A DNA stretch of 64,000 nucleotides from a bacterium (lineage in GTDB: Bacteria; Krumholzibacteriota; Krumholzibacteriia; LZORAL124-64-63), in NCBI GenBank assembly GCA_031441465.1, contig JANOEP010000011.1, positions 35,890 to 99,889 on the forward strand. Reading direction: 5' to 3'. Positions 1 to 64,000 of this stretch are shown piece by piece. Numbering within the stretch: the stretch's first letter is position 1; each line of letters opens with the position of its first letter. The position numbers and the translations under genes were made by a program. The notes below the pieces were generated by a model, which saw only the letters and a list, made by a program, of their open reading frames with translations, did no database searches and was not told the DNA's origin.

Positions 1-34
1 GGGCACGCCGGCGGCCGTCGTCGGCGCCAGTGTC

Positions 35-25198: not shown

Positions 25199-25342
25199 GC
25201 TACCGCCTCGCGCCGGGCCTCCCTTGCGGGTCGCCGGGAATGCCGCTAGCTTCTGTCCGCGTTTTGGCACGGGCAGTTCATCGTACGACCGCGATCCCGC
25301 CACCCCTGACCGCCGGATCGCCCAGACCACACAGGAGGCTCC

Positions 25343-25936
25343 ATGTCCCAGTTCATCGGCCAGCAGGCTCCCGACTTCGCCGCCACCGCCGTCATGCCCG
25401 ACAACAGCGTCAAGGACGGCTTCAAGCTCAGCGACTACCGCGGCAAGTACGTGGTGCTGTTCTTCTACCCGCTGGACTTCACCTTCGTGTGCCCGACCGA
25501 GATCATCGAGTTCAACCGCAAGCTCAAGGAGTTCGCGGCGCGCGACGCGCAGGTCATCGGCGTGTCCATCGACAGCCAGTTCAGCCACGTCGCGTGGAAG
25601 GAGAAGCCGGTCGAGCAGGGGGGCATCGGCATGATCCAGTACCCGCTGGTCGCCGACCTCACCAAGCAGATCAGCCGCGACTACGGCGTCCTGCTTGAAG
25701 ACAAGATCGCGCTGCGCGGCACCTTCCTGATCGACAAGAACGGCGTGATCCAGCACCTGGTGGTCAACAACCTCGGTCTCGGCCGCAACATCGACGAGGT
25801 CCTGCGCATGGTCGACGCGCTGCAGCACCTCGAGAAGCACGGCGAGGTCTGCCCCGCGGGCTGGCACAAGGGCGAGGACGCCATGAGCCCCACCGCGAAG
25901 GGCGTCGCCACCTACCTGGCGAAGCACGGCAAGTAG
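25343..25936 (+). CDS. ahpC: 2-Cys peroxiredoxin (AhpC/Prx1 subfamily).
   Basis: FTFVCPTEI peroxidatic Cys motif and C-terminal resolving Cys (EVCPAGW). Confidence 0.9.
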   Translation: MSQFIGQQAPDFAATAVMPDNSVKDGFKLSDYRGKYVVLFFYPLDFTFVCPTEIIEFNRKLKEFAARDAQVIGVSIDSQFSHVAWKEKPVEQGGIGMIQYPLVADLTKQISRDYGVLLEDKIALRGTFLIDKNGVIQHLVVNNLGLGRNIDEVLRMVDALQHLEKHGEVCPAGWHKGEDAMSPTAKGVATYLAKHGK

Positions 25937-34110: not shown

Positions 34111-35436
34111 TCAGAGAGCGATGATTTCTTGGATATCCGCCTGATCGCCTCCGAATACGATGCCGATCTCCCTCAGCAGGGGGAACGGCGGATCGCCGCC
34201 GGCGAAGATGAAGACGAAATCGTTCGGCAGGATGGCGGGACCGGTCGTCGTGGTCAGCGCCACGGTGTCGGCCTGGATCGCGGTCAGCTGCGAGTCGCCC
34301 AGGAAGCGCACGGCTCCGGAGGCGATCAGGGCCTCGACCTTGTCCGCGTTGCGTTTCTTGATGCGCAGCAGACGGGGCTTGCGGTAGGAAAGCGTCACTT
34401 CGATGTCCGGCTGGCTGGCCAGGGCGACCGCGGCTTCGACGGCGCTGTCGCCCCCGCCGACGACCAGCACCCGGTTACCCCGGTACAGCGAGGCGTCGAT
34501 GAGGCGGTAGGCCACCTTCGCGGCGTCTTCGCCGGCGATGCCGAGCTTGCGCGGCGTGCCACGGCGGCCCAGGGCGAGCACCACGTTCCGGGCGCGATGG
34601 TCGCCGGCCGTCGTGTGGACTTTCAGGTCGCCGTGGCTGCCCGTGATGCTCAGCAGGCGCTCGTCGGTGTGGATCTTCAGGTCGTGCTCCGTGTGCAGGC
34701 GCAGCCAGATATCCAGCAGGTCCTCCTTGCTGTACTCCTTCTGCAGCAACGGGCCGTACAGGGGGATCACGACCGGCTGGACCAGCACCAGCTTGCGACG
34801 GGGGTATTGCAGGATGGTGCCGCCCGGTCCCTGTTGGTCCAGCACCAGGCAGCGCAGGCCGTGCTGGCGCGCCGTCAGCGCCGCGCTCAGGCCGCCGGGT
34901 CCCGCGCCCACGACGATCGCGTCCCAGCACGCGTCGCCGGCAGGGAAGGGGCCGCGGGCGACGATCGCCTCCATGGCGCGGCGTCCCTGGTCCACGGCGT
35001 TGCTCACCAGAGCGAACCCGCCCAACTCGCCGGCGACGAAGATCCCCGGCCGGCTGGTCTCGAGTTCCGGGCTGAGCACGGGGATGTCGTCGCGGGTCGT
35101 GATGTCTCCCAGACCGACCTTCAGCGCGCCGACGGGGCAGGCTTCGGCGCAGCGGCCGTGGCCGATGCACCGGGCGCCGTTGGTGATCACGGCCTTGCCG
35201 CCGACGATGCCGAGCACGTCGCCTTCCGGGCAGGCCGCCACGCAGGAGCCGCAGCCGATGCAGGCGTTGGCGTCGATGAGCGGGTACTGGCCGACGGGCC
35301 GGTTCATGCCGAGCGCCACGGTCTCGTCCCGCCGGGCGGCGTCCCGGATCCGGGTGGCGCGGAAGCGCAGGAAGTAGGGAACGAACAGGCCGGCGCCCAG
35401 CAGGAGGGCACAGCCCCAGATCAGCAACGATTCCAT
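34111..35436 (-). CDS. Membrane-anchored 4Fe-4S ferredoxin-domain / FAD-dependent pyridine-nucleotide-disulfide oxidoreductase (thioredoxin-reductase-like).
   Basis: N-terminal TM. CIGCGSCVAACP and CIGHGRCAEACP cluster motifs. GAGPGG and GGGDSAVE dinucleotide-binding motifs. Confidence 0.75.
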   Translation of the reverse strand: MESLLIWGCALLLGAGLFVPYFLRFRATRIRDAARRDETVALGMNRPVGQYPLIDANACIGCGSCVAACPEGDVLGIVGGKAVITNGARCIGHGRCAEACPVGALKVGLGDITTRDDIPVLSPELETSRPGIFVAGELGGFALVSNAVDQGRRAMEAIVARGPFPAGDACWDAIVVGAGPGGLSAALTARQHGLRCLVLDQQGPGGTILQYPRRKLVLVQPVVIPLYGPLLQKEYSKEDLLDIWLRLHTEHDLKIHTDERLLSITGSHGDLKVHTTAGDHRARNVVLALGRRGTPRKLGIAGEDAAKVAYRLIDASLYRGNRVLVVGGGDSAVEAAVALASQPDIEVTLSYRKPRLLRIKKRNADKVEALIASGAVRFLGDSQLTAIQADTVALTTTTGPAILPNDFVFIFAGGDPPFPLLREIGIVFGGDQADIQEIIAL

Positions 35437-35453
35437 GTCCCCCCCATGCCGAT

Positions 35454-37076
35454 TCAGAAACGCAGCGAGAGATCGGCGCGCAGACGGTCGGCCTGGAGAT
35501 CGTCGCCGCCGTCCCGCTCGTACTCCAGGCCCGCCAGCCAGGCCCGATTCAGGACCTTCCGCGCGCCGATCCTGGCCCAGTGCGAGTTGCGCGTCGCGGC
35601 GCCGGTGAGGTCGTAGTTGTAGAGCCCGGCCGCAAACTGCAGGTCCAGCCCGTCGCGCAGAGCATGATCCAGCCGCAGGGAAGGTGTCAATCCGGACACC
35701 CGCGGGCCGTCGAAGCCCCGCAGGTCCAGGGTCAGGTGGTTGCCGGCTCCCAGGATGCCGGCGCGTCCTACGCCGAAGCCCCAGCTCCAGGTGTCGCCGT
35801 CGCGGCCGGCGCCGCCGCGCACGCCGCCGTCGGCGCTCAACGACCAACCGGCGCCTCCGGTCCAGCGCGTCCGCAGTCGCAGGCCCATCCGCTCGGCGTC
35901 GCGGAAGAGGCTGTCGGGGAGCGAACGGTTCGTCCAAGTGCGGTACAGCTCGCGGCGGTCGTGACTCAGCGAGGCGCTCAGGTTCGGCGTGAATCGCGCG
36001 GAGAGGCTGGTGACCGAGTTGCTCAGGGCGAAGCGACGGCCTTCCGTCGCGTACCGCCAGCCCCGGTTGACTTCCAGTTCGGCGCTCTGGTGCAGGCGGA
36101 AGGCGCCCGTGCGGCCGAGGTCGCCGTCCAGCAGGAGGTACTCGCGGCTGGCTTCGCTGCCGTGGTACTCCCCGACCGCGGCCAGGACGAGATTCCAGGA
36201 CCGGTCGGCGCCGTCGTCGTCGGTCCAGGCCAGGAAACCGCCACCCTTGCGCTCGTCGCTGCTCGGCTCGCTGGTGCGCGGGTCGGGCGTGAAGCCCGCG
36301 AAGGCGCCGACCCGCGTGCCGGCGGCCAGGCGCCGGCTGGCCAGGACCCCGTCGAGCTGGCCGAAACCGCTGACGGCCCGGCTGGTGATCCTGCCCAGGC
36401 TGTAGTGCCAGTCGTCGGCTGGAAGCTCGTGCGAAAGGGTGAAGAGGTAGACGCGGTTGCGCCACTCGTTCTCGGCGGCGGACGAGTAGCCGGCGGCGCG
36501 GCGGTTCTGGCGCAGGGTGCCCCGCACCTGCAGTTCGTGGCCGCCGGCGAACGGTTCGCGAGACCGCAGGTCGAAGCGCAGCGCCGGCTGGGTCAAGTCG
36601 AGGTCGGCCTCGCTGCGGTCGTTGCTGTGCAGCCACTGCAGGGCGAGTCGGCCGCGCAGGAAGAAAGGCTGCCGCGGCGCCGTCGCCGCCGGTCGCGGCA
36701 CGGGCGCGATCGACCCGGCGCCGGCGGCGGGCTCCGTGACGGCCTCGGTGTCGGCCGGCGCGGGCGCGGGGCCTTGCCGGATCACGGTGGCCGTGTCGCC
36801 GGGTTGGACGTCCGCCGGCGCACCCGTGATCCGGCAAGAGGCCGAATGCTCGGCCAGGTGCTCGAGCGTGATCTCGGTGACGGGCGCGTCGCGGCGCAGG
36901 ATCTGCAACACGTCGCCCGCGCGCAGGCCGTCGGCGCGGCCGGCGTCGAGGTAGACCTGATCGGCGGACACGTAGCTGACCTTGGCGCGCGGCAGGTCGT
37001 CCGCCCGCGCCGCCGGGGACGCGAGACCGAGGATCAAGATCCCGGCCAGCAACCAAGGGTGCTGTCGCTGTGTCAT
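35454..37076 (-). CDS. Outer-membrane beta-barrel protein, a putative porin component of a porin-cytochrome complex.
   Basis: Signal peptide. Alternating amphipathic beta-strand pattern over ~450 aa. C-terminal ...DLSLRF with terminal Phe, typical of OMPs. ATG overlaps the stop of the upstream cytochrome gene. Confidence 0.65.
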   Translation of the reverse strand: MTQRQHPWLLAGILILGLASPAARADDLPRAKVSYVSADQVYLDAGRADGLRAGDVLQILRRDAPVTEITLEHLAEHSASCRITGAPADVQPGDTATVIRQGPAPAPADTEAVTEPAAGAGSIAPVPRPAATAPRQPFFLRGRLALQWLHSNDRSEADLDLTQPALRFDLRSREPFAGGHELQVRGTLRQNRRAAGYSSAAENEWRNRVYLFTLSHELPADDWHYSLGRITSRAVSGFGQLDGVLASRRLAAGTRVGAFAGFTPDPRTSEPSSDERKGGGFLAWTDDDGADRSWNLVLAAVGEYHGSEASREYLLLDGDLGRTGAFRLHQSAELEVNRGWRYATEGRRFALSNSVTSLSARFTPNLSASLSHDRRELYRTWTNRSLPDSLFRDAERMGLRLRTRWTGGAGWSLSADGGVRGGAGRDGDTWSWGFGVGRAGILGAGNHLTLDLRGFDGPRVSGLTPSLRLDHALRDGLDLQFAAGLYNYDLTGAATRNSHWARIGARKVLNRAWLAGLEYERDGGDDLQADRLRADLSLRF

Positions 37077-38101
37077 CAGTTACCTCGGGGGTGGCACTGG
37101 AAGCAGGCGGCGCTCTGGTAGGCGTAGCCGTTCTCGCCCTGGTGTCGCTGGTCCGTTTCCGTGCGGTTGTGCTCGTGGCAGAAGATGCACTCGAACACGG
37201 CATAGTTCGTCGGCGTCACGTGGCAGTCGACGCAGGCGTTCCACTCGTTGTTGTGCCGGCCCGAGTAGATCGGGAACAGCGTGTCGTGGTTCCAGTTCGA
37301 CGGCTGCCAGACCGAGGTCGTGTGGCAGGAGGCGCACTGGGTGTTGAAGCCGGCGGCGACGTGGCCGGGATCGTTGGCCGCCTCGTAGTCGGGGCGGTGG
37401 CAGGCGTAGCAGTCGGTCGGCGTGCCCGTGTAGCCCGCGGTGTGGCAGGAGGCGCAGGTCGCAGCGGCGTGGGCGCCGGTCAGCGGGAAGGCCGCCGAGT
37501 GGATGAAGGAGCCGGAGCCCCAATCGCTCGCCGTCATCCCGTGGCAGCTGGAGCAGTCCGTGCTGAAGCCGTTGGCCGCGTGGTCGGGATCGCGCGTCGC
37601 TTCGTAGTCGGTGTCGTGGCAACCGAGGCAGTCGGCGGCGATCGCGGTGTGCTCCTCGCCGGGCGATCCCTGGTGGCAGGCGTCGCAGTCCGCGACGGCG
37701 TGGGCGCCGAGCAGGGGGAAGCCGGTGGCGGGGTGGCGGTTGCGGCTCGCGTCGCGGACGTCCCAGCCGGAGGTGTCGTGGCAGTCTTCGCAGTTCGTGC
37801 CGAAGCGCCGGCGGTGCACGTCGAGGTGGCAGTCGGCGCAGGCCGACGCGACCCGGCGGAACTGCAGGTCCTGATGGCACCCGGAGCAGACGGCCTGGGC
37901 GTGCCGGCCGGTCAGGGCGTAGCCGGTCGTCGTGTGGTCGAACGAGGGCGGCGGCCAGGACACGTTCCACGACGAGGCGTCGTGACAGGCCTCGCAGCGC
38001 ACGTCGATGTCCCCGTGGGGGCTGAGGTCCGGGGTCTGGGCTGGAGCCCGGACCGCGACGGACAGGAGGAACGACAACGGCAGCAGCCAGCGTCGGGTCA
38101 T
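37076..38101 (-). CDS. Multiheme cytochrome c, 13 CxxCH motifs, secreted.
   Basis: Signal peptide MTRRWLLPLSFLLSVAVRAPAQ. 13 CxxCH motifs in 341 aa. ATGA overlap with the upstream gene. Confidence 0.85.
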   Translation of the reverse strand: MTRRWLLPLSFLLSVAVRAPAQTPDLSPHGDIDVRCEACHDASSWNVSWPPPSFDHTTTGYALTGRHAQAVCSGCHQDLQFRRVASACADCHLDVHRRRFGTNCEDCHDTSGWDVRDASRNRHPATGFPLLGAHAVADCDACHQGSPGEEHTAIAADCLGCHDTDYEATRDPDHAANGFSTDCSSCHGMTASDWGSGSFIHSAAFPLTGAHAAATCASCHTAGYTGTPTDCYACHRPDYEAANDPGHVAAGFNTQCASCHTTSVWQPSNWNHDTLFPIYSGRHNNEWNACVDCHVTPTNYAVFECIFCHEHNRTETDQRHQGENGYAYQSAACFQCHPRGN

Positions 38102-39825
38102 GGCCGGTCTCCCTTGGGTTTCGATTCGAGGAACCCCTGCGTGTGGCAGGCCTCGCAGCGCTTGTCGACCGGGCGGTACCGGACCAGGAAGTCGTCGGCG
38201 TCGCCCTCGCGGAGATGGCAGGCCTGGCAGGCCACGTGCTGATGGCCGCCGGCGAGCGGGAAGGTGGTGTCGCGATCGTGGACGAAGCGCTCCGCTTTCC
38301 AGCCGGCGGCGGTGGTGTGGCAGCGGGTGCAGTCGGTGGCGGGCGGGGTCGTCGCCGCGGCGAACTGGCCGCGGTGCGGATCCTGGTGGCACGCGTCGCA
38401 GCGTTCCGGGGTGGGGCTGAAGCGCAGGCTGTCCGAGGCGGCCCGCCGATCCGGCGCGGCCTGCCGATCCAGTGTGGCCTGCCGATCCTGTGGGGCGTGG
38501 CAGGCCCGGCAGGTGGTCGTCGCGTGCTTGCCCGAGAGCGGGAAGCGCGTGCGGCCGTGGTCGTAGGCCACCTGCCGCCACGAGGCGACGTCGTGGCAGA
38601 GCCGGCAACCCGCTTCGGCCTTCTGCGCCGTGCTCGTGCCGGCGTGGGGATCCCGGTGGCAGTCCGTGCACGCCGCCGCCGGCCGCTGCAGGGGCGTCGG
38701 CGCCCCCTGGCGCGGCGGCGCGTGGCAGGCGCTGCAGGCCACGGCGAGGTGGGCGCCCTGCAGGCCGAAACCGGTGGAGTCGTGGCGCGCGACCGTGAAC
38801 GACGACGGTTTGAAGCCGTTCACGGTGTGGCAGCGGCTGCAGGCGTCGTAGGTGCGTCCCTCGGCGGCCTCCGGGTGGCGGTCTTGGTGGCAGCCGTCGC
38901 AGCGCGCGTAGACCAGGGCGCCGCGGGGCGCGTCCGCGCGGTGGCAGGCGTCGCAGCGCAGGGCCGTGTGGCGCCCCCGCAACGGGTAGCGGGTGCGATC
39001 GTGGTCGAAGTCGCCGCCGGCGACCCGCCGCCAGTCCGCGGGATCGTGGCAGCGGGCGCAATCGGCGCCGAGGGAGCCGGCGTGGGGGTCCTTGTGGCAG
39101 GCCGCGCAGCTCGCGTGCTCGACGGGGCGGTAACGGTGCCAGGTGTCGGCAACGCCTTCGACGGTCTCGGTCGTCGCCCGGTGGCAGCGGTCGCAGGCCA
39201 GGTCGCGGTGTTTCCCTGCGAGGACGAAGTCGGCCTTGGCGTGGTCGAACCCGGGAGCGGGCTTCCAGGCGTCCGGCGTGTGGCAGGTCGTGCAGGCGCC
39301 TTCGAACTGGCCACGGTGTTCGTCGCGGTGGCAGTCCAGGCAACCGGCGCCGAGGCCCAGGTAGGTGCGGCCGGGGTTCTTGCCGCGGTCGCGGACGAGG
39401 GAGACGTCCTGGAGCAGATCCGCCCGGTGGCACTTCCGGCAGTCCAGCTTCCGGTGGGCTCCCGCCAGCGGCCACCCAGCCGCAGCGTGGTCGAAGGCGG
39501 CCGGGCCGGCCGGCCAGTGGATCAGGTCGAAGTCGCGACCCTGGTGCTCGACGTGGCAGGTTGTGCAGCGTTCGTGGCCGGCGGTGGCGTGGAGTCCGCG
39601 TCCCGCGGCCACCCGCGTGGCGATCTCCTGGTGGCAGGCCAGGCACTTCGGGCCGACTTTCTGGTCGCCCAGCTCGTGGCAGGACGTGCACGCACGGACG
39701 CCCTCCAGGTGCTCGTGAACGCGGGAGAGCTTGCCGGGCGACAGCTGCGCCGCGGCGAGGACCGGGAATCCCGCAATCAGGACAATATTGATCGCAAAAT
39801 GAGACACACGTCTCAGAACACCCAT
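38098..39825 (-). CDS. Multiheme cytochrome c, ~20 CxxCH motifs, with N-terminal signal/anchor.
   Basis: 575 aa with ~20 CxxCH heme-binding motifs spaced ~20-30 aa apart. Confidence 0.85.
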   Translation of the reverse strand: MGVLRRVSHFAINIVLIAGFPVLAAAQLSPGKLSRVHEHLEGVRACTSCHELGDQKVGPKCLACHQEIATRVAAGRGLHATAGHERCTTCHVEHQGRDFDLIHWPAGPAAFDHAAAGWPLAGAHRKLDCRKCHRADLLQDVSLVRDRGKNPGRTYLGLGAGCLDCHRDEHRGQFEGACTTCHTPDAWKPAPGFDHAKADFVLAGKHRDLACDRCHRATTETVEGVADTWHRYRPVEHASCAACHKDPHAGSLGADCARCHDPADWRRVAGGDFDHDRTRYPLRGRHTALRCDACHRADAPRGALVYARCDGCHQDRHPEAAEGRTYDACSRCHTVNGFKPSSFTVARHDSTGFGLQGAHLAVACSACHAPPRQGAPTPLQRPAAACTDCHRDPHAGTSTAQKAEAGCRLCHDVASWRQVAYDHGRTRFPLSGKHATTTCRACHAPQDRQATLDRQAAPDRRAASDSLRFSPTPERCDACHQDPHRGQFAAATTPPATDCTRCHTTAAGWKAERFVHDRDTTFPLAGGHQHVACQACHLREGDADDFLVRYRPVDKRCEACHTQGFLESKPKGDRP

Positions 39826-40646
39826 CGGTACCCCAGGGCCACGGTTACGGCCACGTGGATCACCATGATGACCAACATGAGGTAAGCAAAGGGTTTGTGG
39901 ATGACGTGCCAATAGTGGAACAACTCCCGGATGCGGTTGTGGAACAGGATTCGACGACCGAGCAAGACCCGCGCCTTGGCGGCCGCCAGGACCGTCATGG
40001 AGGCCCCGGCCGGCAACTGCTTTCGTAACCGCATGCCCAGCAACATGTTGCTCAGAGGCAGGCGCCACAGGCTGCCGCTCGCCGTGGTGGCGGTCGCCAG
40101 GGTGGACATCGTGCGCGCGTCCAGCCCGTGAGCCTCGCGCAGCAGACGGTCGGCCTCCTCGAGCTGGAGCTGGATCTGTTCGATGGTCATGGCTTCGCCC
40201 AGCACGTTGCGCGGCAGTTGCAGGTACAGATACCGTCCGAACACGCCGCTGAGCGCCACGGCCATCATGGACCAGTAGCTCACTGCGACCAGGCCCTGGA
40301 CCTTGAGCGAAGTGTGCAGCGTCACCAGCAGAGGTCCCGAGATTCCCAGGAAGATGTGCCCGTCGAGCCAGCGCGCGATGTGCCCTTTGCCGGCAAGCCC
40401 GTGCCAGCGCTTGCGCAGGGAGTAGAGCAGCAGCAGCAGGATCTGCAGGCTGCCGACGATGCCCAGGCCGTGGCCCACCGTGCCGGCCGGACGCAGGCTG
40501 CGGAAATCCGGGTGGTGGGGGCGCAGGTCCAACGGCAGGCTGTAGTAGTCGATTCCGACCACGAGCAGCCAGGTGATCGCGGCGGCGAGCAGGAGATAAC
40601 TGAATCGCAGCACGATGCGGAACCCGCGGGTGCTCCCGGCGGCCAT
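39813..40646 (-). CDS. Integral membrane protein with His-rich TM helices, a candidate b-type cytochrome / quinol-oxidising electron-entry component.
   Basis: 277 aa with ~6 TM segments. Conserved His within the helices (HGLGIVG, HIFLGISG, HYWHVIHKPF). Overlaps the start of the 20-heme gene by 13 nt. Confidence 0.5.
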   Translation of the reverse strand: MAAGSTRGFRIVLRFSYLLLAAAITWLLVVGIDYYSLPLDLRPHHPDFRSLRPAGTVGHGLGIVGSLQILLLLLYSLRKRWHGLAGKGHIARWLDGHIFLGISGPLLVTLHTSLKVQGLVAVSYWSMMAVALSGVFGRYLYLQLPRNVLGEAMTIEQIQLQLEEADRLLREAHGLDARTMSTLATATTASGSLWRLPLSNMLLGMRLRKQLPAGASMTVLAAAKARVLLGRRILFHNRIRELFHYWHVIHKPFAYLMLVIMVIHVAVTVALGYRWVF

Positions 40647-48168: not shown

Positions 48169-48669
48169 CTAGAGCAGGGCCTTCAGGACAGCCTCGTAGT
48201 CCGGCTCCGCCGTGGTCTCGGGGCAGAGCTGGCTGTGGGTGATCTTGCCGGCGGCGTCGATCACCAGGACCGAACGGGCCAGCAGTCCGGCCAGGGGGCC
48301 GTCGGCGATGCGCACGCCGTAGGCGCGGCCGAACCCGCCGTTGCGGAAGTCGGACACCGAGACGACGGCGTCGAGACCCTCGGCGCCGCAGAATCGCTTG
48401 TGGGCGAACGGCAGGTCCATCGAGGCGCACAGCACGACGGTGTCGGCGAGCTTGCCGGCCTCGACGTTGAAGCGGCGGACGCTCGCGGCGCACACGTCGG
48501 TGTCGATGCTCGGGAAGACGTTCAGGACGATGCGCTTGCCGCGCAGGTCGTCCAGGGTGACCTCCGAGAGATCGGTCTTGGTGAGCGTGAAGGACGGGGC
48601 GGTCGTCCCGACGGCCGGCAGCGCGCCGACGGTGTGGAAGGGGTTGCCCTTCAGCTTGAACTCGGCCAT
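48169..48669 (-). CDS. tpx: Thiol peroxidase Tpx (atypical 2-Cys peroxiredoxin).
   Basis: FPSIDTDVCAASVRRFN peroxidatic Cys motif and a resolving Cys ~35 aa later. 166 aa. Confidence 0.85.
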   Translation of the reverse strand: MAEFKLKGNPFHTVGALPAVGTTAPSFTLTKTDLSEVTLDDLRGKRIVLNVFPSIDTDVCAASVRRFNVEAGKLADTVVLCASMDLPFAHKRFCGAEGLDAVVSVSDFRNGGFGRAYGVRIADGPLAGLLARSVLVIDAAGKITHSQLCPETTAEPDYEAVLKALL

Positions 48670-48817
48670 GGCGGTCTCCTTCAAGTGGATGTTCGCGTTC
48701 ATTCCGCCCCCAATCTAGTGCCGGGGGCGCGGTTCGCCACCCCGCGACGCCGGGGACGCCGAAACGGCGGGGGCGGATCCCGCGGGATCCGCCCCCCGTC
48801 CGTCGCCGGCGGTCCGG

Positions 48818-53961: not shown

Positions 53962-54528
53962 ATGACCAGGACCCTACGACCCACCCTGTTCCTGATCGCC
54001 CTGCTGCTCGCCGCCCTCGCCGCGCTGCCCGCGGCGGCCCGCGACCGCGAGCGCGTCGTCACCGTCATCGACGAGGACGGCGAGACCTTCGTCTGCCGCT
54101 TCGAGGATGGCCAGGGCCTGCGCATCTTCGACAAGTCCTCGGGCGAGGAGGTCTTCGCCTTCGACGTCGCCGAGTTCGAGGCGACGCTCGGCGACGCGAT
54201 GAAGGAGGTGCAGGCGGTGATGGCCGACCTGGACCTGGACATCCGGGCCACGTCCGGCGGCGACCACGTGGTCTTCGCCTGCGACGGCGAGACGGTCGAA
54301 CTGGACCTCGAGGCCGCCATGGAGGGGGTCTTCACGACCCTGGCCGCGCTCGACGACATCGACATCGACGTCGGCGAGATCGTCCGCGAGGCCGGGGAAG
54401 AGCACGCTCACCGTCACGACGGCGCGGGCGGCGAGATGGGTTCCCTGCAGGAGGAGCTCGACCAGCTGCGCCGCGAGATCCGGGAGTTGAAGCAGGAGAT
54501 GCAGCAGGAGCGGGACAGGTCCCGCTAG
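53962..54528 (+). CDS. Hypothetical secreted acidic protein with C-terminal coiled coil.
   Basis: Signal peptide. No family. Confidence 0.4.
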   Translation: MTRTLRPTLFLIALLLAALAALPAAARDRERVVTVIDEDGETFVCRFEDGQGLRIFDKSSGEEVFAFDVAEFEATLGDAMKEVQAVMADLDLDIRATSGGDHVVFACDGETVELDLEAAMEGVFTTLAALDDIDIDVGEIVREAGEEHAHRHDGAGGEMGSLQEELDQLRREIRELKQEMQQERDRSR

Positions 54529-55226
54529 ACGGCGCCGTCGCGGTCGTCCAGCGGCAGCGTCAGCCAACCCAGCGGGCCGTCGACCGTCCAGTCGGCGGCC
54601 CGCAGTTCTGCCGTCGTCCCGAAGCCGTAGAGGCAGCCGACCGTCCGCGCCCCGGCCGCCCGCCCGGCGTCGAGATCGCTGGCGCGGTCCCCGACGACCA
54701 CCGTGCGCGACGGGTCGGCGGCCAGGACGCGCACCATGCCGGTCTTGTCGGTGGCCAGGCCCTGTGCCTCGGCTTCCCCGATGCAGAGCGAGCGCGCGAA
54801 GAAGCGGTCCAGGCCGTGAGCGGCGACGATCCCCCGGAAGTAGGGCGCGTCGGCGTTGGAGAACAGCAGCAATTCGTGGCCGCGGTCCCTCAGCCCGCCG
54901 AGGGCGGCTTCGACGCCGTCGTAGAGGGCGGTGCCGCCCGCCCGGATCGCGACGATTTCCTCTTCCGAAGTGAAGCGGGCGTACGCCGCCGCGAACTCGG
55001 CGCGCCGCGGGCCGGGCACCGTCCGCGGCGGGAAGGCCCGGGCAAAGTACTCCCGGCCGGGCAGGCCCATGCAGTCCTCGATCAGGCCGAGGTCCGGTGC
55101 GGCCGGCGGCAGGCCGCAGTGGGCGTAGGCGCGCCCGAGCGCCGCGGCCACGGCGCCGACGACGGCGCGCCGGCTGTCCAGCAGAGTCCCGTCCATGTCG
55201 AACAGGAAGGCGTAGGGGACCGTCAC
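54525..55226 (-). CDS. HAD-superfamily hydrolase (phosphoglycolate phosphatase-like).
   Basis: FLFDMDGTLLDS motif I. GTG start immediately after the selenoprotein stop. Confidence 0.75.
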   Translation of the reverse strand: MTVPYAFLFDMDGTLLDSRRAVVGAVAAALGRAYAHCGLPPAAPDLGLIEDCMGLPGREYFARAFPPRTVPGPRRAEFAAAYARFTSEEEIVAIRAGGTALYDGVEAALGGLRDRGHELLLFSNADAPYFRGIVAAHGLDRFFARSLCIGEAEAQGLATDKTGMVRVLAADPSRTVVVGDRASDLDAGRAAGARTVGCLYGFGTTAELRAADWTVDGPLGWLTLPLDDRDGAV

Positions 55227-55454
55227 TCAGCCACGCTCCCTCAGCAGCCGGGCCACCTCGCCCGGTTCGGCGTGACGTCCGGTCTCCCGCTTGGAATAGA
55301 CGAGGTCGCCGTCGGCGACGACCTCGAAGACGCCGCCGCTGGAGGGGATCATCTCGGCCGCGATCCCGAACTCCCGCGCCAGCTCCGCCGCCAGACCGGC
55401 GGCGATGGGGTCGTAGTTTCAGGTCCGGCAGAACTCGATGCTCAGCTTCTTCAC
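55227..55454 (-). CDS. selW: SelW/Rdx-family selenoprotein, 75 aa, with in-frame UGA (Sec) at 55419-55421.
   Basis: GGAGG-N6-GTG start. Translation VKKLSIEFCRT[U]NYDPIAAGLAAELAREFGIAAEMIPSSGGVFEVVADGDLVYSKRETG... has the CxxU motif and Rdx beta-alpha-beta signature. A candidate bSECIS hairpin CGCCGCC-GGTCT-GGCGGCG starts 17 nt after the UGA. The ORF track shows only a stop here. Confidence 0.7.
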
Positions 55455-55468
55455 GGTTGGCCTCCGGT

Positions 55469-56641
55469 TCAGAACTCGATCAGCAGCTTCGGCCACTGGG
55501 CGAGCTTCGCTGAAAACGCGTCGGGCTTGAAGTCGTCGATGTGCACGAGGGTCTCGTGGCCGCCGGCGAGGATGTCCTCGAGGATGTGCTTCTGGATGCC
55601 GTTGCTGCGGTCCTCGAGCAGGTTGCGCGTGATGTGCCAGGTCTCGAAGATGCGCCGGCCGACGACGCTGCGCAGGGTCAGGCCGTTGACGATCATGCGG
55701 TCGAGGTCCTGGATGTGGAAGTTGCCCTGCTTCAGGCCGAACAGCACGACCTCGCCGCCGCGGCGCGTCGACTGGATCGCGTTGTTGACGCTGCTGTTGA
55801 AGCCGGCCATCTCCAGCGAGACGTCCGCGCCGATGCCGCGCGAGGCTTCGCGCACGGCCCGCACGACGTCCTTGTCGGCGGCCCAGCCGTGGGCGGCCGC
55901 CTTCGCCGCGTCGAACCCGATCACCTCGTCGGCGCCCAGCGACAGGGCCAGCTCGCGGTTTTTGGCGACCGGCTCGACGCCGATGACGCGCGTGGCGCCC
56001 AGGGCCTTGGCGATCATGATCACGAACAGGCCGATCGTGCCGCAGCCGAACACGGCGACCGTCTTGCCCCGCAGGTCGGCCGCGGTGCAGGCGTGCACGG
56101 CGTTGCCGAAGGGCTCCTGCACGGCGGCCACCTTCAGCTTGATCTTGCGGCGGTCGGTGGGCCACAGCACGCCGGCGGGCAGCTTGATGTACTCGGCGAA
56201 GCAGCCGTCGCGGCTGATGCCGATGATCTGGTCGCGGGCGCAGATGTGGGTCTGGCCGATCTGGCACTGGTAGCACGTGCCGCAGATGATGTGCGACTCG
56301 GTCGAGACGAGGTCCTTGGGGCGGTAGCCGTGGCGCGCCTGCACGCGCGAGCCCGTCTCGACGATCTCGCCGATCATCTCGTGGCCGATGATGCGGGTGG
56401 TCGCGTTTTCGCGCTTGAGGCTCTCGAAGATGTGGCCCTTGAAGGCCGTGCGGTGCCAGATCCCGCGGTCGCTGCCGCAGAAGCCGGCGTAGATGACCTT
56501 GACGATCACGCGGTCGCCGTCGGACGGGTCGTGCGACTCGTCCAGCTCGGGGCGGGGCATTTCCTGCTTGATGAAGCCGCGGGTGGTGTCCCACGGCATG
56601 GTGGCCTTGTCGTAGACCAGGGCCTTCATCGTCTTCGGCAT
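55469..56641 (-). CDS. Zinc-dependent alcohol dehydrogenase (threonine/sorbitol dehydrogenase-like MDR).
   Basis: GHE catalytic Zn motif, the CGTCYQC structural Zn cluster, and a GCGTIG Rossmann motif. RBS AAGGAGG. Confidence 0.85.
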   Translation of the reverse strand: MPKTMKALVYDKATMPWDTTRGFIKQEMPRPELDESHDPSDGDRVIVKVIYAGFCGSDRGIWHRTAFKGHIFESLKRENATTRIIGHEMIGEIVETGSRVQARHGYRPKDLVSTESHIICGTCYQCQIGQTHICARDQIIGISRDGCFAEYIKLPAGVLWPTDRRKIKLKVAAVQEPFGNAVHACTAADLRGKTVAVFGCGTIGLFVIMIAKALGATRVIGVEPVAKNRELALSLGADEVIGFDAAKAAAHGWAADKDVVRAVREASRGIGADVSLEMAGFNSSVNNAIQSTRRGGEVVLFGLKQGNFHIQDLDRMIVNGLTLRSVVGRRIFETWHITRNLLEDRSNGIQKHILEDILAGGHETLVHIDDFKPDAFSAKLAQWPKLLIEF

Positions 56642-60517: not shown

Positions 60518-62178
60518 TATTGGAATCCGCTCTCGCCGATGAATTCCCGCAGCAGCGAGGTCGGCGGCACCAGCCGCGCGTCGATCGGCAAGTGCAACCC
60601 CAGGAACTCCAGCAGCCCCCGCGCCCGCCCGAACGCCGCGTCCTGGGGCGGCACCGCCGCCAGGCGCGGTTCGGCCCACAGCTTCAGCACGCCCAGCTCG
60701 TACGGCAGGCCCGTGTTGAAGAACAGGTCCGCGTTCGACTGCCAGGGGAAGATGTATTTCTTCTCGCCTTCGCGCACGCTGTTCCAGCGCTGCAGGGTCG
60801 TCGCCGCCGGGTAGCCACGGTACTGGGCGTCGCGCACCAGGCGACGGAAGAGCCGCGGCAGGTGGGTGGGCATGTAGGTCAGGTCGTCGATGTTGGTGGG
60901 CGTGAGGGCCGAGACGTAGATGCGCAGCGTGTTGCGGCGCGGCACGTCGGCGGCGAGGCGCGCGTTCAGGGCGTGGATGCCCTCGACGATCAGGGGCGAG
61001 CCGGGCGGCAGGGAGGCGGGGCTCTCTCGCCAGACGCTGCGCCCGGTGTGGAAATCGTAGTGGGGCAGGCGCATGTCGCGGCCGGCCAGCAGCCCGTCGA
61101 GCGTTTCGGCCAGCAGGTCGAGGCGCAGGGCGTCGAGGGTCTCGTAATCGAAGGTGCCGGCGGCGTCGCGGGGCGTGTGCTCGCGGTCGACGAAGAAATC
61201 GTCCAGGGAGAGCGAAAGCGGGCGCAACCCGTGGTCGCGCAGCATCAGGGCGAGCTGCTTGGCGAAGGTCGTCTTGCCGCTGCTCGACGGGCCGGAGATC
61301 AGGACCAGACGGCCGTCGTCGGGCAGGGTGGCGACCCGGTCCGCGGCGCCGACCACCGCCCGCGTGTGCCGAGCCTCGCAGATCGCGATGAGTTCGCCGG
61401 CGCACCCCTCGGCGACCAGGCGGTTGATCGAGCCCAGATCGGGGATGCCCTGGCTCGTGGTCCAGGCGGTGTGATCCCGCAATGCCTGGAGCAGCTTGGG
61501 TTGCTGCGCGAAGGGTTGGACCGAATCCGGAGCGCCGGCCAGGTTGGGCATCAGCACGAAGCCGGGCGGCTCGGGCAGCAGGGCGAAGGCGCCCGCGAGG
61601 GCCGTCGAAGGCAGGTGCAGGCCCTGCAGCAGCAGCCGGCTGCCCTCGGGGCGGCAGAAGACCGCGGTGCCGACCGGGACGTAACGCGCCGCTTCGAGCG
61701 TGTGGCGGCGCGCCGAGTCGCGCAGCGCCCGCTGCAGGGCGCGGGGACCGTACAGCACGGGTTTCAGTTCCCGGTCGGCCGCGATGATCGCCCGCATGCG
61801 CGCCTCGAGCGCGGCGAGTTCGTCGGGCTGCAGGGGAGCGCCGCGGCGCAGCTCGCAGTACATCCCATCGCCGTAGGAGAAGTCCACGACGATCGCGTGT
61901 TCGGGATGCAGCTCCTCGCAGGCCATCGCCATGACCGTCACCAGCGTCCGCTGGACCGTGGAGTGGGATTTGGGATGGCTGCGGCGCATCAAGCCCACCG
62001 TCTCGCCGCCCCACAGCGGTTCGTTCAGGCAGGTGCGCTGGCCGTTGACCACGCCCAGGACGGCCGGGTCGGCGCCGCCGTCGAGTTCGTGGATGGCGAG
62101 CACCTCCAGCAGAGGGGTGCCGGGTACGATCTCGAACGGACGGCCTTCGATCCGGACCGTCGCGCTGCCGTTGGCCAT
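60514..62178 (-). CDS. TGS / ThrRS-N-like domain fused to a uridine kinase / phosphoribulokinase-family P-loop kinase.
   Basis: N-terminal ThrRS-like TGS and second additional domain. Kinase P-loop LISGPSSSGKTTF. RBS AAGGAGA. The stop codon lies inside the right IS terminal repeat. Confidence 0.7.
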   Translation of the reverse strand: MANGSATVRIEGRPFEIVPGTPLLEVLAIHELDGGADPAVLGVVNGQRTCLNEPLWGGETVGLMRRSHPKSHSTVQRTLVTVMAMACEELHPEHAIVVDFSYGDGMYCELRRGAPLQPDELAALEARMRAIIAADRELKPVLYGPRALQRALRDSARRHTLEAARYVPVGTAVFCRPEGSRLLLQGLHLPSTALAGAFALLPEPPGFVLMPNLAGAPDSVQPFAQQPKLLQALRDHTAWTTSQGIPDLGSINRLVAEGCAGELIAICEARHTRAVVGAADRVATLPDDGRLVLISGPSSSGKTTFAKQLALMLRDHGLRPLSLSLDDFFVDREHTPRDAAGTFDYETLDALRLDLLAETLDGLLAGRDMRLPHYDFHTGRSVWRESPASLPPGSPLIVEGIHALNARLAADVPRRNTLRIYVSALTPTNIDDLTYMPTHLPRLFRRLVRDAQYRGYPAATTLQRWNSVREGEKKYIFPWQSNADLFFNTGLPYELGVLKLWAEPRLAAVPPQDAAFGRARGLLEFLGLHLPIDARLVPPTSLLREFIGESGFQY

Positions 62179-62349
62179 GGTCGTCTCCTTGCCCGATGCG
62201 AGGGCGGCCTGATGGTAGGACCAGCGCGACGGCTTGTCCATCCCGGCGCCGGGCAGGGGAAAGCTCCGGTTGTACGGAGCCGGGTCGCCGTCTATACTGC
62301 TGCCCGCAAGAGGTCGCCACGAGACGATGCGAGACAAAGGGAGTGCACC

Positions 62350-63375
62350 ATGTCCGTGAAGCTGGGAATCATGGGGTTCGGTCGGCTGGGCCGGAACATG
62401 TTCCGGATCGCCCACGACGTTCCCGACATCACCTTCGCCGCGGTCAGCGACGTGGCCGGCGTCGAGACGCTGGCTTACCTGCTGAAGTACACCACGGTCG
62501 AAGGGCCCTTCAAGGGCGAGCTGCGCCAGAAGGGACACTACCTGGTCACCAAGCACCAGAACACCCGTGTGGTGCACGGCTCGCGTCCGGGCGACGTCCC
62601 CTGGGATGTGCTGGGCGTCGACATCGTGATCGAGGCCACCGGCATGTTCCGCACCCGCGCCGAGCTGCAGAAGCACCTCGACTCCGGGGCCAAGGGGGTC
62701 ATCCTCTCGACGCCGCCGGTGGGTGCGATCGACCGCATGATCGTCAACGGGGTCAACGACGACCAGCTGCAGCCGGGCGACCGCATCGTCTCCTGCGGCA
62801 GCAGCTCGTGCCACGCCCTGGCCGTGATCATGAAGGTCCTGCACGAGAAGATCGGCGTGAAGCGCGCGACGATGACCACCGTCCACGCCTACACCAGCGA
62901 CCAGCAGCTCAGCGACAACGCTCGCGGCGGCCTGCGCTGGAGCCGCTCGGCGGCCGAGAACATCATCCCGAACAGCAGCTGGGCGGCCGGCGCGGTCATG
63001 GACCTGATCCCCGAGCTGCGGGGCAAGCTGTCGGGCATGGCCCTGAACGTCCCGGTGTCCGCCGGCTCGAACCTCGACCTGGTCATCGAGCTGAACAAGC
63101 CGCTGTCGGCGGTGGAGTTCAACGCCGTGCTGGCCGAGGCGGCCGCCGGCCCCTACAAGGGCCTGATCGGCTACACCGACGAACCCATCGTCTCCAGCGA
63201 CGTGATCGGCAACTCCTGCTCGGCCGTCGTGGATTCGCAGGCCACCCTGTCGCTGGGCAACGGCCTGGTGAAGTGCATCGTCTGGTACGACAACGGCTGG
63301 GCCTACGCCTACCGCATGCTCGAGACCGCCCGCAAGCTGGCGGGCCTGATCCGGTCCCAGGAGGTCGCGTCATGA
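62350..63375 (+). CDS. GAPDH-family paralogue with an altered active site (catalytic Cys replaced).
   Basis: Full GAPDH fold (INGFGRIGR-like N-terminus, C-terminal WYDNEWGY-like WYDNGWAY). The canonical SNASCTTNCLAP is replaced by SCGSSSCHALAV. Confidence 0.7.
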   Translation: MSVKLGIMGFGRLGRNMFRIAHDVPDITFAAVSDVAGVETLAYLLKYTTVEGPFKGELRQKGHYLVTKHQNTRVVHGSRPGDVPWDVLGVDIVIEATGMFRTRAELQKHLDSGAKGVILSTPPVGAIDRMIVNGVNDDQLQPGDRIVSCGSSSCHALAVIMKVLHEKIGVKRATMTTVHAYTSDQQLSDNARGGLRWSRSAAENIIPNSSWAAGAVMDLIPELRGKLSGMALNVPVSAGSNLDLVIELNKPLSAVEFNAVLAEAAAGPYKGLIGYTDEPIVSSDVIGNSCSAVVDSQATLSLGNGLVKCIVWYDNGWAYAYRMLETARKLAGLIRSQEVAS

Positions 63376-64000
63376 GAATCGCCATCAACGGATTCGGGCG
63401 CATCGGGCGCGCGGTCTTTCGCCTGCTCAACAGCATGCCCGAGGTCGAGGTCGTGGCCATCAACGACCTGGCCGACCCCGCGGCGCTGGCCTACCTGCTG
63501 CGCCACGACACGGTCATGGGGCCCTTCCAGGGCGTCGCCCAAATGGACGGGGACCTGATGGTCACCAGCAGCCAGCGCGTGAAGATGACCCAGGTGCCCG
63601 ACCCGAAGCAGCTGCCCTGGCGCGAACTGGGCATCGACTACGTGGTCGAGGCCACCGGCCGCTTCCGCAAGCGGGCCGAGATCGCCCAGCACATCGAGGC
63701 GGGGGCGAGGAAGGTCCTGCTGACGGTGCCCTCGAAGGACGAGATCGACGCGACCATCGTCCTGGGCGTCAACGACGAGGAGCTCAAGCCCGAACACCAG
63801 ATCGTCTCGAACGCCTCCTGCACGACCAACTGCCTGGCGCCCCTGGCCTACGTGCTGGACAAGGAGTTCGGCATCGAGTACGGGCTGATGACCACCGTCC
63901 ACGCCTACACCAACGACCAGCGCCTGGCCGACGTGCCGCACAGCGACTGGCGGCGGTCCCGCGCCGCGGCCGAGAACACCATCCCGACCACCACCGGCGC
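63372..64000 (+). CDS. gap: Glyceraldehyde-3-phosphate dehydrogenase, canonical, 3'-partial at the window end.
   Basis: INGFGRIGR NAD motif and the SNASCTTNCLAP active site. ATGA overlap with the upstream paralogue. Confidence 0.9.
   Translation, partial: MRIAINGFGRIGRAVFRLLNSMPEVEVVAINDLADPAALAYLLRHDTVMGPFQGVAQMDGDLMVTSSQRVKMTQVPDPKQLPWRELGIDYVVEATGRFRKRAEIAQHIEAGARKVLLTVPSKDEIDATIVLGVNDEELKPEHQIVSNASCTTNCLAPLAYVLDKEFGIEYGLMTTVHAYTNDQRLADVPHSDWRRSRAAAENTIPTTTG

Follow-up and report, generated by a model that had tools for sequence, protein, structure and literature searches.

A probable SelW-like selenoprotein gene with an in-frame UGA and a covarying bacterial SECIS-type hairpin

On the minus strand of the window (the whole stretch of DNA analysed here, 64,000 nucleotides in length) a reading frame extends from a GTG start at 55454 to a TGA stop ending at 55227, and passes through an in-frame TGA (55421-55419) at codon 12. 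Does this TGA terminate translation, or does it specify selenocysteine (Sec) in a 75-residue product? A sequence-only reading of the locus had taken the second view and proposed a UGA-encoded selenoprotein of the SelW/Rdx family, and the 75-residue frame with a CxxU motif that it described is found upon translation of the minus strand: 55227-55454 reads VKKLSIEFCRT*NYDPIAAGLAAELAREFGIAAEMIPSSGGVFEVVADGDLVYSKRETGRHAEPGEVARLLRERG*, in which the first asterisk is the in-frame TGA, followed by 63 further codons up to the TGA stop at 55229-55227. As had also been claimed, the gene escaped the mechanical ORF listing, which at this locus contains just a 41-residue ORF (55227..55352), and the gene callers behind the NCBI, Logan and JGI records likewise gave only this 41-residue fragment. 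From the family assignment, the conservation of the UGA, the Cys forms of the family and a covarying bSECIS-type hairpin, we conclude that the locus is very likely a genuine selenoprotein gene, encoding a 75-residue SelW-like (Rdx) thiol/selenol oxidoreductase with a predicted Sec. Loci from relatives are given L numbers and database proteins P numbers; L001-L007 are exact and near relatives, among them GCA_016277765.1, GCA_016278185.1, a Latescibacterota MAG and a JGI metagenome contig. The features of the locus are:

55227..55454, minus strand: SelW-like (Rdx family) gene, very likely encoding a selenoprotein, from its translation, its matches to Pfam Rdx and TIGR02174, and a frame kept through the TGA in the syntenic loci L002-L007
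55461..55465, minus strand: Shine-Dalgarno-like GGAGG, six nt upstream of the GTG at 55454-55452, read from the sequence
55422..55430, minus strand: codons C9-R10-T11, the resolving Cys and two spacer residues of CxxU, from the translation
55419..55421, minus strand: in-frame UGA, proposed Sec codon, U12 of CxxU, with TGA found here in all 87 genes aligned
55386..55404, minus strand: hairpin of the bacterial SECIS type, lying within the coding region, from folding, bSECIS constraints and covariation, composed of CGCCGCC (55404-55398), the loop GGUCU (55397-55393) and GGCGGCG (55392-55386)
55227..55229, minus strand: true stop TGA of the proposed selenoprotein gene, within TGAGTG, abutting the GTG of the HAD gene at 55226
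55469..56641, minus strand: Zn alcohol dehydrogenase (Zn-ADH), threonine-dehydrogenase-like, upstream, from matches to Tdh PRK05396 (1.7e-71) and TIGR00692, both below equivalog cut-offs
54525..55226, minus strand: HAD-family hydrolase, downstream, from the ORF list and from Pfam HAD, HAD_2 and Hydrolase matches on an identical product

The good ribosome binding site, the GTG start and the exact stop/start junction with the HAD gene that had been noted before are thus all present at the locus. In relatives the Shine-Dalgarno position is occupied by GGGGG or GGAGG, and a TGAGTG-type junction recurs in L002-L007.

Assignment of the product to the SelW/Rdx family holds by curated HMM thresholds, and a fold test on a proxy agrees with it. 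With U scored as C, the protein matches Pfam Rdx at 61.5 bits (cut-off 22.6; E = 9e-17), with residues 4-72 lying on profile positions 2-73 of 74, and TIGR02174 (CXXU_selWTH; SelT/SelW/SelH) at 47.3 bits (cut-off 34.2). The equivalog NF041051 (SelTWH_Campy) was narrowly missed at 85.8 versus 88 bits, and the gene is not assigned there. Sequence matches in the PDB are the bacterial Rdx proteins 3DEX (8.8e-9), 2FA8 (5.5e-8), 2P0G, 2OKA, 2OJL and 2OBK, with the CxxU of the window protein aligned on the CxxC of 3DEX and 2FA8; mouse SelW (2NPB) is a weak sequence match (E = 0.046). The structural proxy is the database homologue P0001, which is 83% identical to the window protein and has W in place of U. 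Its AlphaFold model (pLDDT 95.3) has the order b1-a1-b2-b3-b4-a2, with beta-1 at residues 4-9, then the motif loop, and alpha-1 at residues 15-29. When this model was compared with the PDB using Foldseek, the best 21 matches were all SelW-related/Rdx structures (TM 0.79-0.91, rmsd 1.1-2.4 A), followed by MIEN1, mouse SelW and thioredoxins. The window product is predicted from this 83%-identical proxy to adopt a thioredoxin-like beta-alpha-beta-beta-beta-alpha fold.

A search of 5.8 billion proteins yielded 457 homologues, most of which span just 51-79% of the query and were thus called from starts downstream of the UGA. Full-length database homologues (P0001, P0003, P0004, P0008-P0013 and others) show W at the U position, often with a trailing W where the window gene has its TGA stop; the DNA, seen at L005:10034-10036, has TGA, and the W in these CxxW entries is a translation artefact, the TGA having been translated as Trp. 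A further full-length homologue, P0014 (NCBI, from a 1-kb contig), carries Arg in place of U (CVTR), for which a sequencing error or a TGA-to-CGA substitution may be responsible. A search through a collection with a single genome for each GTDB species, using a pattern that permitted any residue at the U codon, gave 80 loci, a set in which the relatives are mostly Gemmatimonadota. For the window and 85 loci taken together, TGA is present at the aligned codon in all 87 SelW-like genes, from about ten phyla. These loci come from Latescibacterota, Krumholzibacteriia MAGs, Gemmatimonadota, Chloroflexota, Actinomycetota, Desulfobacterota, Myxococcota and Bacillota (including the isolate Melghirimyces algeriensis DSM 45474), and also from Armatimonadota-like, Dormiibacterota, Methylomirabilota and Fibrobacteraceae members. 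In L002-L007 the TGA is kept while flanking residues vary in frame (K2R, F8Y, T11S/A, N13S/H), and none of the close homologues terminates at the UGA; all continue in frame. Alignment also reveals homologues with Cys at the U position, including 3DEX, 2FA8 and two database proteins, P0059 and P0104, in which the second Cys of CxxC aligns with U12; in the DNA of P0104 the corresponding codon is TGC, and such Cys forms are rarer than Sec forms in this part of the family. A Bacillota MAG (JAMNXV010000118.1) carries tandem SelW-like paralogues about 300 nt apart (L020:6799 and L020:7113), both with an in-frame TGA and a GGUCU-loop hairpin.

The conservation data bear directly on the simplest alternative, namely that the TGA is a genuine stop and the locus is a pseudogene, encodes an 11-residue peptide, or gives an N-terminally shortened product that starts at the internal ATG at 55352. 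Such a stop would agree with the NCBI, JGI and Logan gene callers, which give the 41-residue fragment alone, and with the finding of no Sec machinery in the 64-kb window (see below), but in-frame conservation extends to the 11 codons that precede the TGA, together with a start, a ribosome binding site and a Cys (C9) that is invariant in the broad homologue alignment, and the Rdx match begins at residue 4. Retention of TGA at the same codon across some ten phyla is not expected of a decaying pseudogene, and, judged by the proxy model, strand beta-1, helix alpha-1 and the redox motif would all be missing from the 41-residue product. We therefore regard a genuine stop as extremely unlikely and retain the reading of the locus as a selenoprotein gene.

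A 7-bp GC stem with a GGUCU loop had been noted 17 nt 3' of the UGA and compared in its placement with bacterial SECIS elements. The hairpin is present; it starts at +18 and spans +18 to +36 (U of UGA = +1), in the codons for I17-A-A-G-L-A-A23 at the start of helix alpha-1. The fold of a 66-nt stretch alone is not unusual for 70% GC DNA (z = -1.2), and the significance of the hairpin accordingly depends on comparative evidence. The published bSECIS model has a G within the first two loop positions, and the loop is usually N1-G-(G or U)-N-N2 with N1 and N2 pairing (PMC13188914). The window hairpin compares with this model as follows:

Apical loop: 3-9 nt in the model, 5 nt (GGUCU) in the window
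Upper stem: 4-16 bp in the model, 7 bp in the window
Loop sequence: N1-G-(G or U)-N-N2 in the model, G25-G26-U27-C28-U29 in the window, a match
UGA to loop: 16-37 nt in the model, 21 nt in the window
MFE: -7.5 kcal/mol or lower in the model, -15.5 kcal/mol in the window (fixed-register hairpin)

The window hairpin thus lies within all of the published bSECIS constraints, as the proposed SECIS placement had implied. Among 80 distinct relatives, the loop G is present in every one, the full loop pattern in 76 and a local MFE of -7.5 kcal/mol or lower in 73.

The locus could nonetheless be a selenoprotein gene in which this hairpin is a by-product of encoding an Ala-rich helix (AAGLAAE) at 70% GC, with the true SECIS located elsewhere or of a different type. 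The stem is made of GCC and GCG Ala codons, the single-sequence z is only -1.2, and some bacterial SECIS elements deviate from the consensus model (PMC13188914). The comparative evidence argues against this. It comes from a gap-free alignment of 45 nt from the UGA, the statistics of which ignore phylogeny and in which most sequences are from Gemmatimonadota. Stem pairing is observed in 89.7% of cells versus 17-58% with the 3' arm slid by 1-3 columns, and double-change cells number 45 in the true register versus 5-12 in the slid controls; the covariation score of 0.271 compares with 0.083 or less in slid registers and was reached by none of 500 column shuffles. The same helix is predicted independently by RNAalifold. 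The outermost stem pair is formed by two third-codon positions (Arg CGN and Ala GCN), and these silent bases covary, being Watson-Crick in 38 of 44 genes against 22.5 expected, mostly as CGG/GCC (27) and CGA/GCU (10), with a chi-square p of about 1e-9 when phylogeny is ignored. At the inner pairs, coordinated amino-acid replacements on the two arms preserve pairing (GUC/ACG, UCC/GAG, AUC/AUG, ACC/GUA), and the 27 sites that vary among five close relatives all lie outside +6..+38. The gene for the Cys form P0104, available as one unique sequence, encodes a related helix, yet only two of its seven pairs form in the hairpin register. We consider a by-product hairpin very unlikely; covariation of the stem across the relatives, and its near-absence from the Cys form, argue that the hairpin is selected as RNA and is tied to the UGA of the proposed selenoprotein gene.

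No tRNA-Sec was found in the 64-kb window by ARAGORN or Rfam, which gave only tRNA-Met, tRNA-Gln and tRNA-Glu, and an NCBIfam sweep of the approximately 50 GC3-called window genes revealed no selA, selB, selD or selU. Similarly, no tRNA-Sec is present in the loci of 85 relatives, with about 1.3 Mb of flanks, and tblastn with approximate E. coli SelD, SelA and SelB queries gave no match in the window or the relatives' loci, which is a weak negative. A tRNA-Sec-like candidate was considered in a Gemmatimonadales MAG about 8 kb from its SelW-like gene (L059:1599-1698, minus strand), where ARAGORN reports a 'tRNA-Arg (tcg)' of 100 nt; Rfam gave no match to it at E <= 0.01 and it folds into long GC hairpins instead of a cloverleaf, so that it is probably a false positive. 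The absence of Sec genes from the window and the relatives' flanks indicates that the machinery is unlinked to the SelW-like gene, and such separation of Sec machinery from selenoprotein genes is usual. Because it carries this probable selenoprotein gene, the source organism is very probably Sec-decoding. A literature search on selenocysteine in Latescibacteria returned nothing relevant.

The stop codons of the 49 called window genes are TGA in 36, TAG in 10 and TAA in three, a preference for TGA that fits the 70% GC content. An alternative code with UGA as a sense codon (table 4 or 25) was rejected on this count; UGA is a normal stop in the window, and readthrough at the SelW-like gene would thus be local and site-specific. 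A related alternative is that the UGA is read as Trp, Cys or Gly, by a reassigned code or near-cognate suppression, so that the product is a CxxW or CxxC protein. Database proteins of the SelW-like family do appear as CxxW, and neither tRNA-Sec nor SelB was found in the window or the relatives' flanks. However, the W is an artefact of records that also render the terminal TGA as W, the code is standard, and the UGA is followed by a conserved covarying hairpin with a SelB-type loop that is absent from the Cys form. The residue aligned with the UGA in homologues is, moreover, a redox Cys, a residue known to be replaced by Sec. Readthrough with an amino acid other than Sec accordingly appears to be a most improbable account of the locus, and insertion of Sec is the reading we follow here.

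Other candidates for UGA-interrupted genes were sought in the window as same-frame high-GC3 segments joined by TGA, and only ordinary adjacent gene pairs were found; ORFs at 34.1-35.4 kb and 37.6-39.7 kb, considered as interrupted genes, are antisense shadows of intact minus-strand genes. Two Cys-type thiol peroxidases, of the AhpC/Prx type and Tpx, are encoded at 25310-25933 (plus strand) and 48172-48714 (minus strand); neither is UGA-interrupted, which suggests that these families are not selenoproteins in the source organism.

We propose that the SelW-like gene is probably transcribed together with the ParA-like, Zn-ADH and HAD genes and that its translation would begin at the GTG at 55454. 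With the ribosome at the UGA of codon 12, the hairpin starting 14 nt beyond it would be bound by SelB carrying Sec-tRNA(Sec), such that selenocysteine is inserted instead of termination and translation runs on to the TGA at 55229-55227, where the TGAGTG junction would couple it to the HAD gene. In the folded product, the beta-1/alpha-1 loop would hold C9 and U12, and these two residues would alternate between selenol/thiol and selenenylsulfide states. For the source organism, SelB, tRNA(Sec), the incorporation of selenium and this redox chemistry are what we infer from the gene.

The stop codon of the Zn-ADH gene (55471-55469) lies 14 nt before the SelW-like GTG, and the two genes are probably in the same operon; translational coupling of the HAD gene to the SelW-like gene is predicted from the TGAGTG junction. 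No promoter-like or terminator-like sites were found between these genes. Adjacency of the ADH and SelW-like genes is kept in L002-L007, L012, L014, L035 and L054, and the SelW-HAD arrangement in L002-L007, L012 and L014; the ParA-like/ADH/SelW-like(/HAD) synteny reaches four further MAGs, one of them from Krumholzibacteriia, with approximately 73% ADH identity, and puts the source organism near Latescibacterota/Krumholzibacteriia. In 34 Gemmatimonadota loci (e.g. L008, L011 and L053) the SelW-like gene directly precedes a phosphofructokinase-like gene on the same strand, which has a GGDAPGLNA motif at about +180 nt from the UGA. No neighbour is common to all of the phyla, with the Pfk-like gene in Gemmatimonadota and ADH/HAD here, and the context thus yields no general functional clue. 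Within the Latescibacterota/Krumholzibacteriia-related clade, the conserved and apparently coupled unit of ParA-like ATPase, Zn-ADH, SelW-like and HAD genes raises the idea that the SelW-like protein is a dedicated redox partner of the ADH/HAD pair, and may for example keep the ADH cysteine ligands or a pathway intermediate reduced; we think this unlikely and offer it as speculation.

Several other genes of the window were noted. A 188-residue Asp/Glu-rich ORF (53962-54528, plus strand) converges on the HAD gene with a 4-nt overlap; it has no family match, and its conservation is confined to the closest relatives (72-86% identity). Tandem type I glyceraldehyde-3-phosphate dehydrogenase genes are present at 62131-63372 and 63240-64000 (both plus strand), the second of which leaves the window, and the pair is also found in L002 and L005. 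The gene at 34114-35610 (minus strand) encodes an unusual fusion of a 4Fe-4S ferredoxin-like segment (approximately residues 110-170) with a YpdA/thioredoxin-reductase-like flavoprotein domain (approximately residues 230-490). A large ORF at 38101-39930 (minus strand) has weak matches to the multihaem cytochromes HmcA and DmsE, and NCBIfam gave no match for its large neighbours at 35457-37079 and 37079-38251.

Bacterial SelW-like CxxU selenoproteins with a SECIS inside the ORF were described in 2005 (PMC1088965) and form the most abundant of the selenoprotein families known in bacteria (PMC1088965, PMC2398784). The scarcity of Cys forms among them was noted earlier (PMC1794560), and in the GOS data there are 427 Sec forms versus 56 Cys forms (PMC2398784). 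The window gene is a typical member of this family (PF10262, formerly PF05169; TIGR02174), sharing its small size, thioredoxin-like fold, N-terminal CxxU, UGA-encoded Sec, bSECIS immediately downstream within the ORF, and few Cys homologues. It does not differ in kind from the catalogued members, the window copy being one from a 70% GC lineage with a GTG start; the clade-specific ParA-like/Zn-ADH/SelW/HAD arrangement was not found reported in PMC1088965, PMC1794560 or PMC2398784.

The Cys Rdx structures 3DEX (SAV_2001), 2FA8 (Atu0228), 2OBK, 2OKA, 2OJL and 2P0G have the same fold (proxy TM 0.79-0.91) and motif position, but have CxxC rather than CxxU, are 20-30 residues longer, and are 26-40% identical to the window protein. 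Mammalian SelW (2NPB) and MIEN1 (2LJK) also have the Rdx fold, with a CxxU (SelW) or CxxC motif between beta-1 and alpha-1; mammalian SelW is distant from the window protein (proxy TM 0.70, 20% identity, in addition to the weak E value given above) and is a homologue rather than an orthologue. Decoding differs as well, with eukaryotic SelW using a 3'-UTR SECIS and SBP2/eEFSec, whereas the window gene has an in-ORF hairpin that would serve SelB. The reference SelB-binding element, the SECIS of E. coli fdhF, likewise forms its hairpin in the ORF, a short distance 3' of the UGA. The sequence of the apical loop, GGUCU, is the same as in the window, and SelB recognises the G-U in it; in the fdhF element the G-G-U is at +22..24 and the stem has a bulged U. 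The window hairpin differs from it in having G-G-U at +25..27, one codon further from the UGA, and in the absence of a bulged U.

Since SelW-like proteins have for two decades ranked as the most abundant selenoprotein family known in bacteria, the gene opens no new question. If the redox-partner reading were true, unlikely as it is, it would provide the first defined physiological context for bacterial SelW-like proteins. The main value of the finding is as an annotation fix, since the public records found for this lineage give a 41-residue fragment without the active site, and the CxxW rendering in the protein collection can mislead searches for CxxU and CxxC motifs. The gene also flags the organism as a probable user of Sec, such that other UGA-interrupted genes are worth seeking elsewhere in its genome.
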